Shown here piece by piece: positions 7,167 through 19,572 of a stretch of 32,000 nt of DNA. The stretch is from Minisyncoccota bacterium (GTDB lineage Bacteria; Patescibacteriota; Minisyncoccia; Minisyncoccales; Minisyncoccaceae). Both the position numbers and the translations under genes were made by a program. The stretch is taken from assembly GCA_041651335.1 (NCBI GenBank), contig JBAZJL010000002.1, positions 1-32,000 on the forward strand, in the 5' to 3' direction. Positions within the stretch are counted from its first letter, which is position 1. Every line of letters starts with the position of its first letter. The notes beneath the pieces were generated by a model. That model ran no database searches and was not told the origin of the DNA. It saw nothing but the letters and a program-made list of their open reading frames with translations.

Positions 7167-8714
7167 ATGAATTCAATTAAAAAAACTATTCTTTCTCCAA
7201 ATAATAAAAAACAAGACATTATCATTCCTCAAAATGTCTTTTTCTGTATAAACACTTTAAAAGACCACGGTTTTACAGCTTTTATTGTTGGCGGATGTAC
7301 TCGTGATTTTCTTAGAGGAATAGAGCCAAAAGATTGGGATATTGCTACAAGCGCTACCCCAGAACAAATCCAAGAAGTATTTAATAAGTTAAATATTAAG
7401 ACTTTTTATGAAAATAATTTTGGCACAGTTGGCCTGGAATTTTTAAAAAACAAAAAATCAAAATCCGAAAATCAATACGAAATTATTGAAATAACTACCT
7501 ATAGGTCTGAATCTTCTTATTCAGATAGCCGACATCCAGATAAAGTAGCTTGGTCAAAAACCATTGATCAAGACTTAAAAAGAAGAGATTTTACTATTAA
7601 CGCAATTGCCCTATCCCCTTTAAAAAATAAGCAAGAATTTGAAATATTTGACCTATTTAATGGCCAAGAAGACCTAAAAACCCATTTAATTAAAGCTGTA
7701 GGAGACCCAAAAGAAAGATTTAAAGAAGATGCTTTAAGAATGATGCGGGCCATAAGATTTGAAGCCAGCCTGGGAAACAATTGGCAAATTGAAAAAAACA
7801 CTTATCAAGCCATAATCGAGTGCTCAAAAGGATTACAAAAAATATCAACCGAAAGAATCAGAGACGAGTTAAATAAAATAATTATGACAAAAAATGCTGC
7901 CAAAGGCATTGATTCTTTAAGGCAATCTGGACTTTTAAATTATATAATTCCCGAACTTTTAGAAGGCTGTAATATTTCCCAAAACAAACATCATGTTTAT
8001 GATTGTTATAAGCACAACTTAGAATCTCTTGATTATACAGCCAAAAAGGGCTTTAGCTTCCCTATTCGTTTGGCTGCATTGTTGCACGATATTGGAAAAC
8101 CAAGATCAAAACAAGGAACCGGCAAAGAGGCTACTTTTTATAATCATGAAATGATTGGTGCCCGAATGGCCCAAAAAATATTAGAAAGACTGCGCTATCC
8201 CAAAAAAGAATGCGAAAAAATTATTACTTTAGTTCGTTTTCATTTGTTTTATTATAATGTTGACGAAGTAAAAGAAGCATCTATTCGTCGGCTAATAAAC
8301 AATGTTGGAATAGAAAATATAGAAGATTTATTAAAATTAAGAATGGCTGATCGAATTGGAAGCGGATGTCCAAAAGCCGAACCCTACAAACTAAGACATA
8401 TGAAATATATGATTGATAAGGTTTCTCGAGATCCAATTTCTGTAAAAATGTTAAAAATTAATGGCTTAGATTTAATAAAAATTCTAAAAATTGAACCTGG
8501 ACCAAAAATTGGACAAATATTAGATATTTTGTTAGAAGAAGTATTGGATAATCCGAAAAATAATACTAAAAAATACTTACAAAAAAGGGTAAAAGACTTA
8601 GCAAGCTTAAATGAAATTGATTTAATTAAATTATCCAATCAAGCCAAAAAAACTAAACAAACAATGGAAAACAAAGCCAATGAAGAAATAAAAGGAAAAT
8701 ATTGGGTTTGTTAA
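7167..8714 (+). CDS. cca: CCA-adding tRNA nucleotidyltransferase with an HD domain
   Basis: 515 aa. It contains FIVGGCTRDFLRG..DWDIAT and RRDFTINA, plus the HD region AALLHDIGKP. Confidence 0.9.
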   Translation: MNSIKKTILSPNNKKQDIIIPQNVFFCINTLKDHGFTAFIVGGCTRDFLRGIEPKDWDIATSATPEQIQEVFNKLNIKTFYENNFGTVGLEFLKNKKSKSENQYEIIEITTYRSESSYSDSRHPDKVAWSKTIDQDLKRRDFTINAIALSPLKNKQEFEIFDLFNGQEDLKTHLIKAVGDPKERFKEDALRMMRAIRFEASLGNNWQIEKNTYQAIIECSKGLQKISTERIRDELNKIIMTKNAAKGIDSLRQSGLLNYIIPELLEGCNISQNKHHVYDCYKHNLESLDYTAKKGFSFPIRLAALLHDIGKPRSKQGTGKEATFYNHEMIGARMAQKILERLRYPKKECEKIITLVRFHLFYYNVDEVKEASIRRLINNVGIENIEDLLKLRMADRIGSGCPKAEPYKLRHMKYMIDKVSRDPISVKMLKINGLDLIKILKIEPGPKIGQILDILLEEVLDNPKNNTKKYLQKRVKDLASLNEIDLIKLSNQAKKTKQTMENKANEEIKGKYWVC

Positions 8715-8785
8715 GGGCCCGTAATTAAACGGTATAATACTACTTTCGCATAGTAGCGTTAGGAGTTCAATTCTCCTCGGGTCCA
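8715..8785 (+). tRNA. tRNA-Ala (anticodon CGC)
   Basis: Hand-folded cloverleaf. Acceptor GGGCCCG/CGGGTCC includes the G3:U70 Ala identity pair. D stem is ATTA/TAAT. Anticodon stem is CTACT/AGTAG with loop TTCGCAT. T arm is AGGAG-TTCAATT-CTCCT. Discriminator is A and no CCA is encoded. The gene starts on the base after the cca stop codon. Confidence 0.9.
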
Positions 8786-8807
8786 CTTTTTATTATTATG
8801 TCCGCAT

Positions 8808-8875
8808 ATTAAATTATGTGGACATAATATAGAAAAATTTTGTCCAGATTTGTCCACAAACAAATTATCTGGACA
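8808..8875. promoter_or_regulatory. Cluster of DnaA-box-like TGTCC(A/G)CA / TGTGGACA motifs (left cluster)
   Basis: TTGTCCACA at 8850-8858 matches TTATCCACA at 8/9 positions. TTGTCCAGA at 8840-8848 and TGTGGACAT at 8817-8825 each match at 7/9. Weaker TGTCCGCA and CTGGACA motifs are also present. Confidence 0.4.
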
Positions 8876-8879
8876 TTCC

Positions 8880-8950
8880 CGGGATGTAATATAAAGGCAT
8901 TATGCAGGCTTCGGGAGTCTGTAATCTGGGTTCAATTCCCAGCATCCCGA
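8880..8950 (+). tRNA. tRNA-Pro (anticodon CGG)
   Basis: Acceptor is CGGGATG/CATCCCG. Anticodon stem is CAGGC/GTCTG with loop TTCGGGA. T arm is CTGGG-TTCAATT-CCCAG. Discriminator is A and no CCA is encoded. Confidence 0.88.
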
Positions 8951-9265
8951 CCCATTATTTCACTGGGAATTGAAGGCGGAGGGCCGACGGGCCCGAGCCC
9001 GGCCTGACCGAAACTTCACCAGAAGTTTACGCGAAGGCAATTCCCAACATCCCGACCCATTATTTCACTGGGAATTGAAGGCGGAGGGCCGACGGGCCCG
9101 AGCCCGGCCTGAGCGAAACTTCACCAGAAGTTTACGCGAAGGCAATTCCCAGCATCCCGACCCATTATTTCACTGGGAATTGAAGGCAAAGGGCCGACGG
9201 GCCCGAGCCCGGCCTGACCGAAACTTCACCAGAAGTTTACGCGAAGGCAATTCCCAGCATCCCGA
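8951..9265 (+). repeat. Three tandem 105-bp units. Each holds a GC-rich three-helix module plus a copy of the last 18 nt of tRNA-Pro.
   Basis: CAATTCCCAGCATCCCGA occurs at 8933 (inside the tRNA), 9038 (one mismatch), 9143 and 9248, giving a period of 105 bp. The modules lie at 8963-9047, 9068-9152 and 9173-9257. Confidence 0.95.
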
Positions 9266-9324
9266 CCATTAGTTTTGTTGAGAATTAAGGGCAAATGGCC
9301 GATTAAGACCAAGTCAAGGCCTAA

Positions 9325-9395: not shown

Positions 9396-9461
9396 CATAA
9401 AAACACTAAAATATGCATAAAAATAGCGTTTTTTGTTAAAATTAATGAATTTTTATTAAAA

Positions 9462-9493
9462 AATAGGGATTTTAAAATAAAATCCTATTTTTT
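9462..9493 (+). terminator. AT-rich hairpin plus T-run; likely terminator of the tRNA Ala-Pro-Val cluster
   Basis: AATAGGGATTTTA-AAA-TAAAATCCTATT forms 12 bp with one bulged G and runs into TTTTTT. An A-run upstream means it could act in both directions. Confidence 0.45.
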
Positions 9494-9521
9494 ATATTCA
9501 ATCCAATGTCGCACAATATTA

Positions 9522-10285
9522 ATGTTCCACGTAGAACATATTGATTTTTAGATACCCCTACGTATTTTAGAGACGAATGATTAGCTGTTTCAGACAAAAT
9601 GAAAATATTTTAGAAAACATTTCTCCTAAAAATCATTAATCATTTAAGATGTTGTTTGTTTTATTGTTTAAAAATTAATGATGTTCCACGTGGAACATTC
9701 AATTTTTATGCTCTTAAAACATATGTTTATTGATGATCATGGTTTTGGGACAAAATTACATTTTAAAAAACTTTTGCTTTCCTAAAAATCATTAATCATT
9801 TAAGGTGCTGTTATGTTATTATTCTGTAAAATTACGTGTTCCACGTGGAACATTAATGTTTTTTATAGATTAAAATGCCATATTATTAATCATCTATGTT
9901 TTTAAGGAAAAATGTTTTCTAAAATATTTTCATTTTGTCAAAAATCATTAATCATTTAAAGTGTTATTTGTTTTATTGTCTAAAAATTAATGATGTTCCA
10001 CGTGGAACATTAAACTTATATATACTTAAAACTTACAATCATTGATGATCATGGTTTTGGGACAAAATTACATTTAAAAAAACTTTTGTTTTCCTAAAAA
10101 TCATTAATCATTTAAGGTGCTATTATGTTATTATTCTGTAAAATTACGTGTTCCACGTGGAACATTAATGTTTTTTATAGATTAAAATGCCTTATTATTA
10201 ATCATCTATGTTTTTAAGGAAAAATGCTTTTCAAAATATTTTCATTTTGCCTGAAACAGCTAATCATTCGTCGCTAAAATACGTA
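9522..10285. repeat. AT-rich repeat block with five regularly spaced GTTCCACGTGGAAC palindromes, alternating ~156-bp units (A-B-A-B), bounded by 68-bp inverted repeats
   Basis: Palindromes lie at 9522-9539 (one mismatch), 9681-9698, 9837-9852, 9993-10010 and 10149-10164. The marker AAAAATCATTAATCATTTAA recurs at about 9628, 9783, 9939 and 10095. The inverted repeats at 9559-9626 and 10218-10285 differ at about 6 of 68 positions by my count. Confidence 0.9.
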
Positions 10286-10336
10286 AAAACATAAAATTTT
10301 TAATAAAAAACACTAAATAATCTACTATAGTCTTTA

Positions 10337-10470
10337 TGTGGACATAAAATGTTACTTAAAACAAACATTATGTCCACTAATGTCCACTAAATTTTAATGG
10401 ACAAGGTATGTGGACAATTATGTGGAAAAACAATGATTTATGTGGACAAATCCGGACATATTATTTGGAC
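10337..10470. promoter_or_regulatory. Cluster of DnaA-box-like TGTGGACA / TGTCCAC motifs (right cluster)
   Basis: Three boxes match TTATCCACA at 8/9 on the minus strand: TGTGGACAA at 10409-10417, TGTGGAAAA at 10421-10429 and TGTGGACAA at 10441-10449. TGTGGACAT at 10337-10345 matches 7/9. There are also two TGTCCACTAA motifs at 10371-10390 and weaker GGACA motifs. Confidence 0.4.
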
Positions 10471-17199: not shown

Positions 17200-17865
17200 A
17201 TGCCTCAACTTTTATTATATTTTTGTTTTTTTGTTTTTTCTTATCTTTTGGGATCAATTCCTTTTAGTTATTTGATTACAAAAATTTTTACTAAAAAAAA
17301 TGTTTTTGAATTAGGTTGGAAAAAAAGTTCGGCCAGCAATGTTATTAAAAACATTGGAAAATTACCAGGAATTTTAGCTTTTTTATTGGATGTTGGTAAG
17401 GGATTTTTAGTGGTTTATTTGGCTCAACAATTGCAATTTTCTTCTTTTCTTCAAGCCTTGGCTGGAATTTGCGCAATCTTAGGACACAATTGGTCTATTT
17501 TTGTAAAAGGCAAAGGAGGAAGGGGTTTGGCCACTTTAGTTGGCGCTGTAATCGGGTTTTCTCCTGTTTTTCTTTTTATTATTGTTATTCCTTGTATTAT
17601 TTTTACTTTTATTTGGACTGCTTCAATCGGCACGATTTTATCTTTAGTGTTTGGAGTTTTTTTGGGTTTTGCTTTTGCAAAGTGGCAAGCGCCTGGATTT
17701 TTAATTTTGATTTCTCTTCTGCCAATTTTTATTAAACGACTAAGTCCGATTAAAGAAATAAATAACATTACTGATCAAGGGGAAAAAAGAGCATTAATCG
17801 AAAACAGACTTTTGTTTGATCAAGACACGGTTCCCAGCTTTCGCATTAAATTTTTTAAAAAATAG
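17200..17865 (+). CDS. PlsY-family acyltransferase, paralog 3 (divergent N-terminal motif)
   Basis: 221 aa. It contains LLGSIPFSYLITK and GHNWSIFVKGKGGRGLAT. The GSGN.GATN motif is degraded to KKSSASNVIKN. Confidence 0.65.
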   Translation: MPQLLLYFCFFVFSYLLGSIPFSYLITKIFTKKNVFELGWKKSSASNVIKNIGKLPGILAFLLDVGKGFLVVYLAQQLQFSSFLQALAGICAILGHNWSIFVKGKGGRGLATLVGAVIGFSPVFLFIIVIPCIIFTFIWTASIGTILSLVFGVFLGFAFAKWQAPGFLILISLLPIFIKRLSPIKEINNITDQGEKRALIENRLLFDQDTVPSFRIKFFKK

Positions 17866-17907
17866 TTTTGACTTTTTTGTTAATAAGTTGTATTTTTTAT
17901 ATCTAAT

Positions 17908-17979
17908 GCCCCCGTAGCTCAACGGATAGAGTTCTGGTCTTCGGAACCAGCGGTGTGGGTTCGAATCCTGCCGGGGGCA
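17908..17979 (+). tRNA. tRNA-Arg (anticodon TCG)
   Basis: Acceptor is GCCCCCG/CGGGGGC. D arm is GCTC-AACGGATA-GAGT. Anticodon stem is CTGGT/ACCAG with loop CTTCGGA. T arm is GTGGG-TTCGAAT-CCTGC, with two wobble pairs. Discriminator is A and no CCA is encoded. Confidence 0.86.
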
Positions 17980-17980
17980 C

Positions 17981-18021
17981 CCTAATACAAAAGATGGCTC
18001 CATGCCATCTTTTGTATTAGG
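17981..18021 (+). other. Perfect 18-bp hairpin immediately 3' of tRNA-Arg
   Basis: CCTAATACAAAAGATGGC-TCCAT-GCCATCTTTTGTATTAGG. Its 3' arm overlaps the 5' arm of the GC-rich module that follows. Confidence 0.7.
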
Positions 18022-18215
18022 ATTGATTCGAAGCCGGAGGGCCGACGGACCCGAGGCAGGCCCTGAGGAATTTTCAGTAGAAAATTACCGAAGGGCGAAT
18101 CCTGCCGAGATATTTTTGAAGGCGAATCCTGCCGAGATATTTTTGAAGGCGAATCCTGCCGAGATATTTTTGAAGGCGAATCCTGCCGAGATATTTTTGA
18201 AGGCGAATCCTGCCA
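18019..18215 (+). repeat. One GC-rich three-helix module (18019-18103) followed by five tandem 27-bp units that re-copy the module 3' edge and the tRNA-Arg T-arm 3' strand
   Basis: GGCGAATCCTGCCGAGATATTTTTGAA starts at 18094, 18121, 18148, 18175 and 18202 (the last copy is decayed). CGAATCCTGCCG is identical to tRNA-Arg positions 17962-17973. Confidence 0.93.
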
Positions 18216-18359
18216 AAATTCTTTTTAAAAGCAAATTTTTTAGCTTAATAATTCAAATACAAAGCCATAACAACGGCAAACAAAAAATAAACAAGTTTTA
18301 CTAAAATTTTACCCAAAAACAAAAAAATAGTGGATTTAGGCTTTAAGTAGTCTTTTCTC

Positions 18360-18388
18360 TTGATTTTTTAAACAAAATAAACTATACT
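18360..18388 (+). promoter_or_regulatory. Candidate promoter of the short pilin-like gene
   Basis: TTGATT (18360-18365), a 17-nt spacer, then TATACT (18383-18388), 27 nt upstream of the ATG. Confidence 0.3.
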
Positions 18389-18414
18389 CAACCCAGAATA
18401 GCAACCTAAAAAAG

Positions 18415-18852
18415 ATGATTTTTAATAAAAAATTCAAATATTTTTCTTTTCTTAGCCTTCTTTTTTTGGTTTTTGTTTCTTTTCCAATTATTGCTAATGC
18501 TGCCACTTGTCCAACCTGCGACTCAATTGTTTGTTGTGGAAACGAAGGCCAGCCTGCTTGTACTTTAGCGGATTTGTTTTGTTTAATCCAAAGCATAATA
18601 AATTTCATCTTATGGCAAGTAGTTCCGCCATTAATAGTGATTTGGTTTGCTTATGCTGGTTTTTTAATGCTTACCTCTGGAGGAGATCCTGGAAAAACAA
18701 AACAAGCCAAAGACATGGTTACCGCAGCTTTTATTGGAATAATTCTTGTTTATTCTGCTTGGATGTTAGTTTACTGGTTTATCAGCTTTATCGGAGGGCC
18801 AACTCAAAGTAATTGGCTATTGCAGTTTTTTACTACTCAAACCACTCCTTAA
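18415..18852 (+). CDS. Small secreted two-TM pilin-like protein (TrbC/VirB2-like, the pilin type seen in Patescibacteria) with a Cys-rich N-terminus
   Basis: 145 aa. The signal peptide ends IIANA. Six Cys lie in ATCPTCDSIVCCGNEGQPACTLADLFC. Next come TM1, then LTSGGDPGKTKQAKDMVTAAFIGIILVYS, then TM2. The same core is found in the N-termini of the ORFs at 28789-30096 and 30101-31480. Confidence 0.7.
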   Translation: MIFNKKFKYFSFLSLLFLVFVSFPIIANAATCPTCDSIVCCGNEGQPACTLADLFCLIQSIINFILWQVVPPLIVIWFAYAGFLMLTSGGDPGKTKQAKDMVTAAFIGIILVYSAWMLVYWFISFIGGPTQSNWLLQFFTTQTTP

Positions 18853-18884
18853 TTTTAATAATAGTCTGGTTAATCTGAAATCAA

Positions 18885-18957
18885 GCCCCGTTAGCTCAGT
18901 TGGTAGAGCAGGAAGCTCTTAACTTCAAGGTCGTGGGTTCGAATCCCTCACGGGGCA
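18885..18957 (+). tRNA. tRNA-Lys (anticodon CTT)
   Basis: Acceptor is GCCCCGT/ACGGGGC. D arm is GCTC-AGTTGGTA-GAGC. The anticodon loop is CTCTTAA. T arm is GTGGG-TTCGAAT-CCCTC, with one T:T mismatch. Discriminator is A and no CCA is encoded. Confidence 0.86.
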
Positions 18958-19411
18958 CAAACGAACACATGACAGGATAGAAAATATTGATTAATTTAAA
19001 ACGCCGATTAACGAAAGAGGGATTCGAAGCCGGAGGGCCGACGGGCCCGAGGCAGGCCTAAGCGAAACTTCACCAGAAGTTTACGCGAAGGCGAAACCTC
19101 ACGGGGCACAAACGAACACATGACAGTATAGAAAATATTGATTAATTTAAAACGCTGATTAACGAAAGAGGGATTCGAAGCCGGAGGGCCGACGGGCCCG
19201 AGGCAGGCCTGAGCGCAATTTCACCAGAAATTGACGCGAGGGCGAAGCCTCACGGGGCACAAACGAACACATGACAGTATAGAAAATATTGATTAATTTA
19301 AAACGCTGATTAACGAAAGAGGGATTCGAAGCCGGAGGGCCGACGGGCCCGAGGCAGGCCTGAGCGCAATTTCACCAGAAATTGACGCGAGGGCGAAGCC
19401 TCACGGGGCAC
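18958..19411 (+). repeat. Three tandem ~151-bp units. Each has a 60-nt AT-rich spacer, a GC-rich three-helix module and a copy of the tRNA-Lys 3' end.
   Basis: CCTCACGGGGCAC occurs at 18945 (in the tRNA), 19097, 19248 and 19399. The modules lie at 19017-19100, 19168-19251 and 19319-19402. Units 2 and 3 look identical. Unit 1 differs by paired substitutions in a hairpin. Confidence 0.95.
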
Positions 19412-19572
19412 ACAAAAGACCACGACAAAGAACAAGATTGATAGATAAAAAATTAAACAAGGAAGAAAGGAAAAAGTATTTTTTAAAAATTAACAATTAA
19501 ATATCGAAGAGACACCTGTTTTGGTTAAAAAACTAAAACAAGGCGCATAATAAAAAGTAAAAAAATAAAAAA

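Follow-up and report, generated by a model that had tools for sequence, protein, structure and literature searches.

A family of structured repeats anchored at tRNA genes of Paceibacterota and its probably decayed micro-array behind tRNA-Arg

Integrative elements that target tRNA genes (ICEs and CIMEs) measure kilobases, accrete in tandem at tRNA 3′ ends and are integrase-specific. R2 targets 28S rDNA, and tRNA-derived SINEs are mobilized in trans. REP/BIME sequences and the pneumococcal BOX elements, built as A-B(n)-C, are modular intergenic repeats with neither tRNA specificity nor target-derived arms. ToxI of type III toxin-antitoxin systems and CRISPR arrays are tandem RNA repeats with an adjacent toxin or cas gene. 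Organellar genomes contain GC-rich palindromic clusters, such as GC42 of yeast mitochondria, the PstI palindromes that flank mitochondrial tRNA genes in Neurospora, and the repetitive hairpin-forming elements of sponges (PMC4478555 and references therein; PMC2800124). The organellar GC clusters are simple hairpins with target duplications of 2 nt, which is AG for GC42 (PMC4478555; PMC2800124).

The window analyzed here, a stretch of 32,000 nucleotides from a Minisyncoccota bacterium (contig JBAZJL010000002.1, positions 1 to 32,000 of the forward strand), is AT-rich, with a GC content of 34%, and its genes are of the housekeeping kind: a CCA-adding enzyme, FakA/DegV, two PlsY paralogues, a T4SS-type pilin, S15 and PNPase. 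CCA is encoded in none of its five tRNAs, and at 8714-8715 the first base of tRNA-Ala stands directly after the stop codon of the CCA-adding enzyme gene. The order at tRNA-Arg is tRNA, terminator-like hairpin, single module and core-less array, and the genes on the 3′ side of the array are those for the pilin and tRNA-Lys, rpsO and pnp. The features of this locus and the related arrays are as follows.

8933..9271, + strand: family members behind tRNA-Pro, a 105-bp unit in 3.2 copies, then a decayed fourth unit (TRF; covariance model, 100-108 bits)
17868..17896, + strand: promoter-like TTGACT-17-TATTTT 5′ of tRNA-Arg, a putative site (consensus scan, match only)
17908..17979, + strand: tRNA-Arg, anticodon TCG, without encoded CCA (Rfam, 63.7 bits; ARAGORN, 17907-17982)
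17962..17973, + strand: T-loop C56 to acceptor G67 of tRNA-Arg, CGAATCCTGCCG, source of the downstream 12-mer
17981..18021, + strand: perfect 18-bp hairpin with a 5-nt loop (inverted-repeat scan, RNA fold)
18019..18030, + strand: module 5′ arm AGGATTGATTCG, the 3′ strand of the T-arm in inverted copy, with a GATT duplication breaking it
18031..18095, + strand: module core, P2 and P3 (folds; covariance model, 81 bits; family covariation; consensus)
18096..18107, + strand: module 3′ arm, a copy of tRNA C56-G67, of which C18096 also closes P3
18094..18214, + strand: 27-bp array, 4.5 copies, 100% identical (TRF, exact-word counts)
18360..18388, + strand: promoter-like site of the pilin gene (gene 18415-18852), its sequence conserved in the related loci L003 and L011
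18946..19412, + strand: family members behind tRNA-Lys, a 151-bp unit in 3.1 copies (TRF; covariance model, 94-95 bits)

The module behind tRNA-Arg belongs to an undescribed family of small, GC-rich structured repeats that lie behind tRNAs and that we trace only in Patescibacteria/Paceibacterota. The core word of the family occurs seven times in the window, always on the + strand and always behind a tRNA (three copies at Pro, one at Arg and three at Lys). Among 185,579 species, each represented by one genome, the exact core pattern is found only in three Patescibacteria/Paceibacterota MAGs; a metagenome scan returned further AT-rich contigs of the same kind, along with six chance matches in GC-rich DNA. 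A search with a covariance model built from 28 copies gave 100 hits and 71 distinct copies, 55 of which lie within 500 nt downstream of a same-strand tRNA, representing 20 isoacceptors, while the others are mostly at locus ends or of a variant type. Because this sampling was seeded by the exact P2 pattern, the breadth seen is what such a seed reaches. The modules have a GC content of 56-62%, against 34% for the window. Tandem arrays of whole units are common over the loci, with periods of 105-151, 1.9-3.3 copies and 90-100% identity. A full-text literature search found no description of a tRNA-anchored three-helix element. Phage sequences matched by BLAST at tRNAs alone, and plasmid sequences gave no match. 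Viral contigs were rejected as hosts, all 24 of their matches to the P2 word being random GC-rich sequence.

The window contains other repeats near the tRNA-Pro array. The decayed fourth Pro unit (TTGAGAATTAAGGGCAAATGGCC...) occupies 9262-9324 and reaches tRNA-Val; distal copies of arrays tend to be the most eroded. Positions 9500-10270 hold five copies of the palindrome ATGTTCCACGTGGAACAT inside tandem repeats of ~156/312 bp, and this block is bracketed by an inverted repeat, AGACGAATGATTAGCTGTTTCAG at 9572-9594 and CTGAAACAGCTAATCATTCGTC at 10251-10272. Dense, DnaA-box-like clusters of TGTGGACA/TGTCCAC lie at 10330-10470 and 8795-8875, and may mark a replication origin beside the tRNA cluster; counted over the whole window, the DnaA-box consensus is not above chance.

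Each typical unit of the family is tied to the tRNA that precedes it. Its 3′ flank is the sequence of the adjacent tRNA starting exactly at T-loop C56, a nucleotide that also closes P3, and its 5′ flank is the reverse complement of T54-65 of its own tRNA. The order is thus the tRNA segment from C56, the inverted copy of T54-65(+) that makes up the 5′ arm, a core of ~66 nt, and the next C56. The boundary between module and T-arm to which the preliminary description drew attention is real: GAAGG|C56 recurs as the 3′ junction of every typical member, and all typical copies lie on the tRNA's own strand. The copied tRNA segment ends in one of three ways, near nt 65-67 (8-12 nt, as at Arg in the window), at the discriminator plus 1-2 nt (18-20 nt), or past the trailer hairpin (23-46+ nt). 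For the outer 4 bp of P1, pairing with the unit's own 3′ arm is seen in 109 of 160 cells, compared with 76 for shuffled partners (0 of 10000 shuffles reach the observed value). P1 mostly stops at the end of the T-stem, and in some copies it extends to 12-15 bp; the 5′ arm is therefore a contiguous inverted copy and not a borrowed T-stem.

A variant type of the element carries an extra hairpin, CTTGATTGTAATCAATCAAG, and is lodged in the T-loops of incomplete tRNA-Arg(GCG) copies, sense in L030 and antisense in L013; it is also found in the loop of a REP-like hairpin. To judge by sequence, the Arg 5′ arm of the window, AGGATTGATTCG, looks like a collapsed form of this extra hairpin; L011 has the same form of 5′ arm, GAATTGATTCG. 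The REP-like hairpin family, ATGTTTGGGGG...CCCCCAAACAT, is present in L002/L010, L009, L013, L030 and L038, in some cases with the module in its loop. L030 (~985-1015) holds a second small hairpin element, GTCCTGCTTCGCCAAGGCTTCGCAGGAT, which interrupts a 3′ copy of tRNA-Ser at C56|G57, and a related CCTGC...GCAGGAT hairpin follows a GAAGG junction at ~3880-3910 of L001; the two point to several element types nesting at the same site. Between plsY and tRNA-Arg(TCG) in L025 (1895-2110, + strand) there is an ornate element of 216 nt, made up of a closing stem of 16 bp, a pair of P3-like hairpins, an AT hairpin, P2 and another hairpin with a GACG loop. Its folding energy is -98 kcal/mol (z = -10.4), and Rfam contains no match to it.

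The family folds as a three-way junction with P1 formed by the two flanks. P2 consists of a 3-bp outer helix, a GGA/GA internal loop, a 5-bp helix and a GACG loop, and P3 is a long hairpin that usually has a UGA/GAA internal loop, a bulged A and a C-ANNA-G loop. The single module reported earlier behind tRNA-Arg is borne out at 18019-18107, where the covariance model aligns to 18020-18109 with 81 bits (E = 9e-20), the lowest score among the copies of the window. Its core junction nucleotides are G18030, which it has in common with the inner register of the 5′ arm, A18031 and A18032. P2 (18033-18057) is made of the outer strands GCC/GGC, the internal loop GGA/GA, the inner strands GGGCC/GACCC with one C-A mismatch, and the loop GACG. 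The junction AG separates it from P3 (18060-18096), which runs through GCCC/GGGC, the loop UGA/GAA, GG/CC, the bulged A18087 and AAUUUUC/GAAAAUU to the loop AGUA. The Arg module is an old, slightly damaged and decaying copy of the family.

Over 62 distinct copies, 92.3% of cells are paired and compensatory changes, on both sides of the pair, occur in 28 of the 30 pairs. The covariation score of these copies is 0.446. Shuffles score 0.137, with none of 500 attaining the observed value, and slid partners score no more than 0.099. Conservation lies at 89-100% for the unpaired GAA, GGA, GA and GACG, the G of the junction, the A..CA of the loop and the bulged A. Such covariation together with conserved loops reads as the signature of a selected fold, whether of RNA or of single-stranded DNA. 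Counts of G-U against A-C pairs were rejected as a means of telling RNA from DNA pairing, since they are confounded by AT-rich flanks and alignment shifts. A protein-coding reading of the ORF at 18002-18304 was also rejected, as its translation, (ANPAEIFLK)x4, is merely a translated repeat; unit lengths over the loci are not multiples of three, which likewise counts against coding.

A selected fold could be of use to the host. The family would then be a non-coding RNA or ribozyme that is co-transcribed with tRNAs and whose three-way junction binds a protein or self-cleaves at GG|C56; it would help to process pre-tRNAs, provide insulation against genes downstream, or yield defined tRNA 3′ fragments. 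Dosage would be tuned by arrays, and that of the 27-mer would be a dead remnant. The compensatory changes, the near-invariance of the unpaired nucleotides and the common strand of typical copies and tRNA all argue in this direction. So does the array between tRNA-Pro and tRNA-Val, which has no intervening promoter-like site and is thus very likely transcribed. However, Rfam offers no ribozyme or RNA family to which the module could be assigned. Over the whole window, tRNA is the sole Rfam 15 family to pass the gathering threshold; at E <= 10, over 17850-19500 and over 1700-2400 of L025, non-tRNA matches stay far below their thresholds, and the families without a match include hammerhead, hairpin, twister, twister-sister, pistol, hatchet, HDV-like, YrlA and T-box. 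Mapped by eye and by reasoning only, the junction strands and loops misfit a hammerhead, a K-turn and a hairpin ribozyme, and these identities were rejected. In addition, many units have their module behind a terminator-like hairpin, and a processing role leaves the copying of the tRNA 3′ part unaccounted for. We regard a host function as possible but rather unlikely, and further evidence on both sides of it comes from related genomes.

The gene order plsY - tRNA-Arg - pilin - tRNA-Lys - rpsO - pnp is kept in the window and in L003, L011 and L025, with identities to the window in plsY, pilin and pnp of 85-88% for L003 and L011 and 66-80% for L025. Against this stable background, occupancy is patchy, which speaks against a host function: behind tRNA-Lys there are three units in the window, two in L011 (with different trailers and identical cores), one in L025 and none in L003. 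Decayed, truncated and core-less copies are common in the family, and this too counts against a host RNA. Behind tRNA-Arg, the window, L003 and L011 have the hairpin position and the first module in common, while the content between the first 3′ arm and the pilin promoter is wholly different among the three. The right-hand border of this variable zone is the promoter-like site at 18360..18388, conserved in all three. By manual count, the first Arg modules of the window and L003 differ at 5 of ~60 core positions, and the Arg module is better conserved than the flanking genes between the window and its relatives, an observation that favors a host RNA. The Arg module is kept in three genus-level relatives, and was therefore inherited vertically there and not recently inserted, a point against a mobile element. 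At tRNA-Lys, P3 of the first unit (19060-19095) is identical to P3 of the Pro array (9000-9040) and differs from that of Lys units 2-3 by compensatory changes. The identity with the Pro array suggests exchange or gene conversion between the loci.

The perfect 18-bp hairpin noted in the preliminary description at 17981-18021 is present as described. Its arms (17981-17998 and 18004-18021) are 100% complementary around a loop of 5 nt, and it is the longest perfect inverted repeat of the window. As RNA it folds at -29.3 kcal/mol (z = -9.8), with none of 200 shuffles as stable; it carries GATGGC/GCCATC at its top and has a U-rich 3′ arm (CATCTTTTGTATT). Many positions of the hairpin have changed among the window, L003 and L011, and yet pairing is full in all three, apart from one G-U in L011, the orthologues folding at -28.7 kcal/mol in L003 and -20 kcal/mol in L011. 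A simple terminator scan makes no call here because the T-run lies within the stem: the upper stem GATGGC/GCCATC is followed by TTTTGTATT, a run that is paired with the upstream A-tract. Hairpins of similar A-tract, stem and U-tract build, without modules, lie behind tRNA-Ala (8787-8836) and downstream of tRNA-Val (9457-9494), and in relatives they lie behind many tRNAs and are there included in the repeated unit. The Arg hairpin is thus not special in kind to its locus, as the same build is found behind other tRNAs with or without modules, and it is most likely a native terminator or processing hairpin of the tRNA transcript.

The hairpin and the module had been proposed to be mutually exclusive, which overstates their overlap. 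The module 5′ arm, AGGATTGATTCG, has two pairing registers, an outer one, AGGATT (18019-18024), and a junction-proximal one, GATTCG (18025-18030). The hairpin overlaps the outer register by 3 nt and leaves the inner register clear, and it is the latter that pairs with CGAATC (18096-18101). The predicted fold of the whole region shows the hairpin, P2 and P3 together. As modeled, then, the hairpin would not be an alternative to folding of the module.

The array that follows the module was described earlier as a 27-mer repeated five times. The array is real, but the 27-mer GGCGAATCCTGCCGAGATATTTTTGAA occurs in exactly four full copies (18094-18201), followed by the first 13 nt of a fifth (18202-18214), so that a count of five holds for the 11-13-nt T-arm part alone. 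TRF reports 4.5 copies over 121 bp with 100% matches, and zero such arrays are expected by chance. A single copy of the T-arm word CGAATCCTGCC lies in the tRNA (17962-17972), and five more follow downstream. As proposed, the 27-mer joins the 3′ junction of the module to 12 nt of the tRNA-Arg T-arm (CGAATCCTGCCG, C56-G67); in full it consists of this 12-nt 3′ arm, the U-rich spacer AGATATTTTT and GAAGG. The contrast drawn with Pro and Lys also stands, as whole units of 105 and 151 bp are amplified there. The 27-mers adjoin head-to-tail without spacers. Compared with a typical unit, the 27-mer has the composition of a core-less unit that is also without a 5′ arm. The 27-bp array shows no significant RNA structure (z = -0.89), nor has the 27-mer a predicted fold of its own, and its junction is absent from 65 of 65 other loci, the array being seen in the window alone. 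Given the lack of a fold, the junction absent elsewhere and the homogeneity of the copies, we read the array as a core-less, arm-less unit that was recently expanded.

Single core-less units are present in related genomes, in L005, L011 and L034; the junction in L005 is GACGAGAAGG|CGAGTCC, with the same form in L034, and the L011 unit reads ...AATTTTCGATGG|CGAGTCCTGCCG. At the position orthologous to the array, cored units are found: L003 has CGAGTCCTGCCG-TATAATTTT-CGGACTCGAAGCC and then a core, and L011 has CGAGTCCTGCCG-GATAAAATTAGCAAAAGTTTT-CGAAGG followed by a core. With homologous spacers joined to a core, and single core-less units elsewhere, the 27-mer is not a de novo product of repeated breakage. 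The preliminary description had suggested repeated breakage and rejoining, or slippage, at the boundary; of these, slippage accounts most economically for 27-bp copies that are 100% identical. A strongly folded core between direct repeats is a classic substrate for slippage deletion, and the core of the family is strongly folded and flanked by direct GAAGG(C) repeats. We hypothesize that a short second unit at Arg first lost its core and 5′ arm, probably by slippage deletion between these repeats, as core-less units elsewhere look to have done, and that the leftover 27 bp would then have been expanded by replication slippage or unequal recombination. On this reading the Arg micro-array is a decay product of the tRNA-anchored repeat family.

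An array that is 100% identical over 121 bp and confined to the window might instead reflect mere simple-sequence instability or an assembly artefact, in which case it would be a random tandem repeat beside a tRNA. We give this hardly any credence. The 27-mer is built of two family-specific pieces, GAAGG and C56-G67 of the adjacent tRNA, and independent assemblies hold homologous spacers and single core-less units. The array is also shorter than a typical read pair, which would make misassembly unlikely.

For the family as a whole, we lean on balance towards a non-autonomous and probably selfish structured element, anchored at the T-arm of Paceibacterota tRNA genes, whose Arg array arose by core loss and then amplification. 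Such structured elements would occupy tRNA T-arms and other hairpin loops, where their two arms pair as P1 and close the three-way junction. Units would pass on by vertical inheritance or be lost, recombination would exchange them between loci, unequal recombination would amplify them, and slippage would erode them. The fixed 55/56 junction, the variable duplication length and the same-strand bias make one fixed and one variable break the simplest arrangement, and we conjecture that at primary insertion the T-loop is broken site-specifically at 55/56 while the place of a second break varies. Our leading guess is that insertion is duplicative and is completed by copying of the structured RNA or of a single strand; snap-back synthesis could make the inverted 5′ arm. 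Neither the window nor the neighboring ORFs of the loci yielded a transposase, integrase or reverse transcriptase, and the ORFs beside module-rich loci (RecG, PGA_cap, AdoHcyase and others) are of the housekeeping kind and include no enzyme of a mobile element. A host-useful RNA or ribozyme would account equally well for unpaired nucleotides that are near-invariant and for a conservation that exceeds that of coding genes. A MITE or transposase-mobilized element was rejected, as the arms are copied from the local tRNA and not from the element, and the duplication is not fixed but ranges from 8 to 46+ nt.

A more specific form of this hypothesis, which we put forward tentatively and consider improbable, makes the module the RNA component of a homing element of SINE-like or R2-like type. 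The T-loop, which would be the most conserved DNA word of any genome, might be nicked at 55/56 and the structured RNA copied, with a duplication of the tRNA 3′ part that would keep the tRNA alive; the junction might recruit an enzyme or be catalytic itself, possibly as a small ribozyme at GG|C56, and the 5′ arm might be made by snap-back copying. CCA after terminal tRNA copies (in L025, and perhaps at Pro in the window) was rejected as a retro-signature, being not significant and compatible with chance.

The copied tRNA segments could also be footprints of an integrase. Under this scenario, the units are small cis-mobilizable elements whose attP is the tRNA 3′ end; integration in the T-loop restores the tRNA, repeated integration accretes units in tandem, and the module is conserved cargo. 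Such a history is suggested by a direct repeat whose start lies within the T-loop and whose end often coincides exactly with that of the tRNA (18-20 nt), by trailers of terminal copies that differ from that of the tRNA-proximal copy, and by L011, where A59 of the tRNA contrasts with G59 in every downstream copy, a difference that replacement of the 3′ end would produce. Yet neither the window nor the neighboring ORFs of the loci contain an integrase or recombinase domain, and viral contigs, phages and plasmids are without copies. One core at 20 or more tRNA targets is unlike integrase-specific att sites, units of 88-151 bp are far below known integrative elements, and the arms flank a 66-nt core and not a 7-bp overlap region. 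The variability of the duplication (8 to 46+ nt) is a further difficulty, and we consider this scenario quite doubtful.

If the family is indeed a selfish structured element, then streamlined candidate-phyla genomes tolerate its proliferation, and the problem of finding a safe site is solved by nesting in the T-arm of essential single-copy tRNA genes, which are regenerated. The family would also offer an RNA motif of ~90 nt, with its compensatory changes in 28 of 30 pairs, for tests of ribozyme activity or protein binding, as well as a natural marker for strain-level turnover in uncultured Paceibacterota. The Arg array mainly illustrates how units decay, by core loss between short repeats and then slippage.

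Compared with the described systems, the family resembles ToxI and CRISPR arrays only in that the 27-mers are short, identical, head-to-tail and on one strand. It differs from them in that there is no toxin or cas gene (a T4SS-type pilin lies downstream), there are no spacers, and the 27-mer has no predicted fold. With REP/BIME and BOX elements it shares a modular build, a variable number of internal modules, an intergenic position and, very likely, transcription with neighboring genes; unlike them, it is tRNA-specific, has target-derived arms and has strongly conserved unpaired nucleotides. R2 and SINEs provide a parallel in the use of a multicopy conserved RNA gene as a safe target, in one fixed junction with a variable duplication, and in a structured RNA part that could recruit a trans-supplied enzyme. 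However, no reverse transcriptase, poly(A) or other retro-signature has been shown for the family.

The likeness to ICEs and CIMEs is closer, as the tRNA 3′ segment is directly repeated from the T-loop, the tRNA is left intact and units stack in tandem. A direct repeat of the tRNA 3′ segment flanks the units, as in integrative elements, but there is no cognate integrase among the ORFs searched and no single tRNA target: units of 88-151 bp share one core at at least 20 tRNAs, and carry an extra inverted copy, the 5′ arm. Like the organellar GC clusters, the family is small, GC-rich, structure-constrained and non-autonomous in an AT-rich genome, and it shows presence/absence polymorphism, merging and shuffling, and both single elements and tandem arrays, some of them beside tRNA genes. 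It is, as they are, a dispersed, polymorphic, non-coding, small GC-rich structured repeat, and would offer a bacterial counterpart of them. In contrast to these clusters, it is neither a simple hairpin nor bordered by a short fixed target duplication; it is a three-way junction of a bacterium, its unpaired nucleotides are invariant, the arms that close it are copies of the neighboring tRNA, and its boundary is fixed at C56 with a duplication of variable length. Its nearest described counterparts are the organellar GC clusters and hairpin elements together with the tRNA-targeting integrative elements, whose logic it shares. What sets it apart from both is the fold, the invariance of the loops, the derivation of the arms from the target, and the lineage of its hosts.
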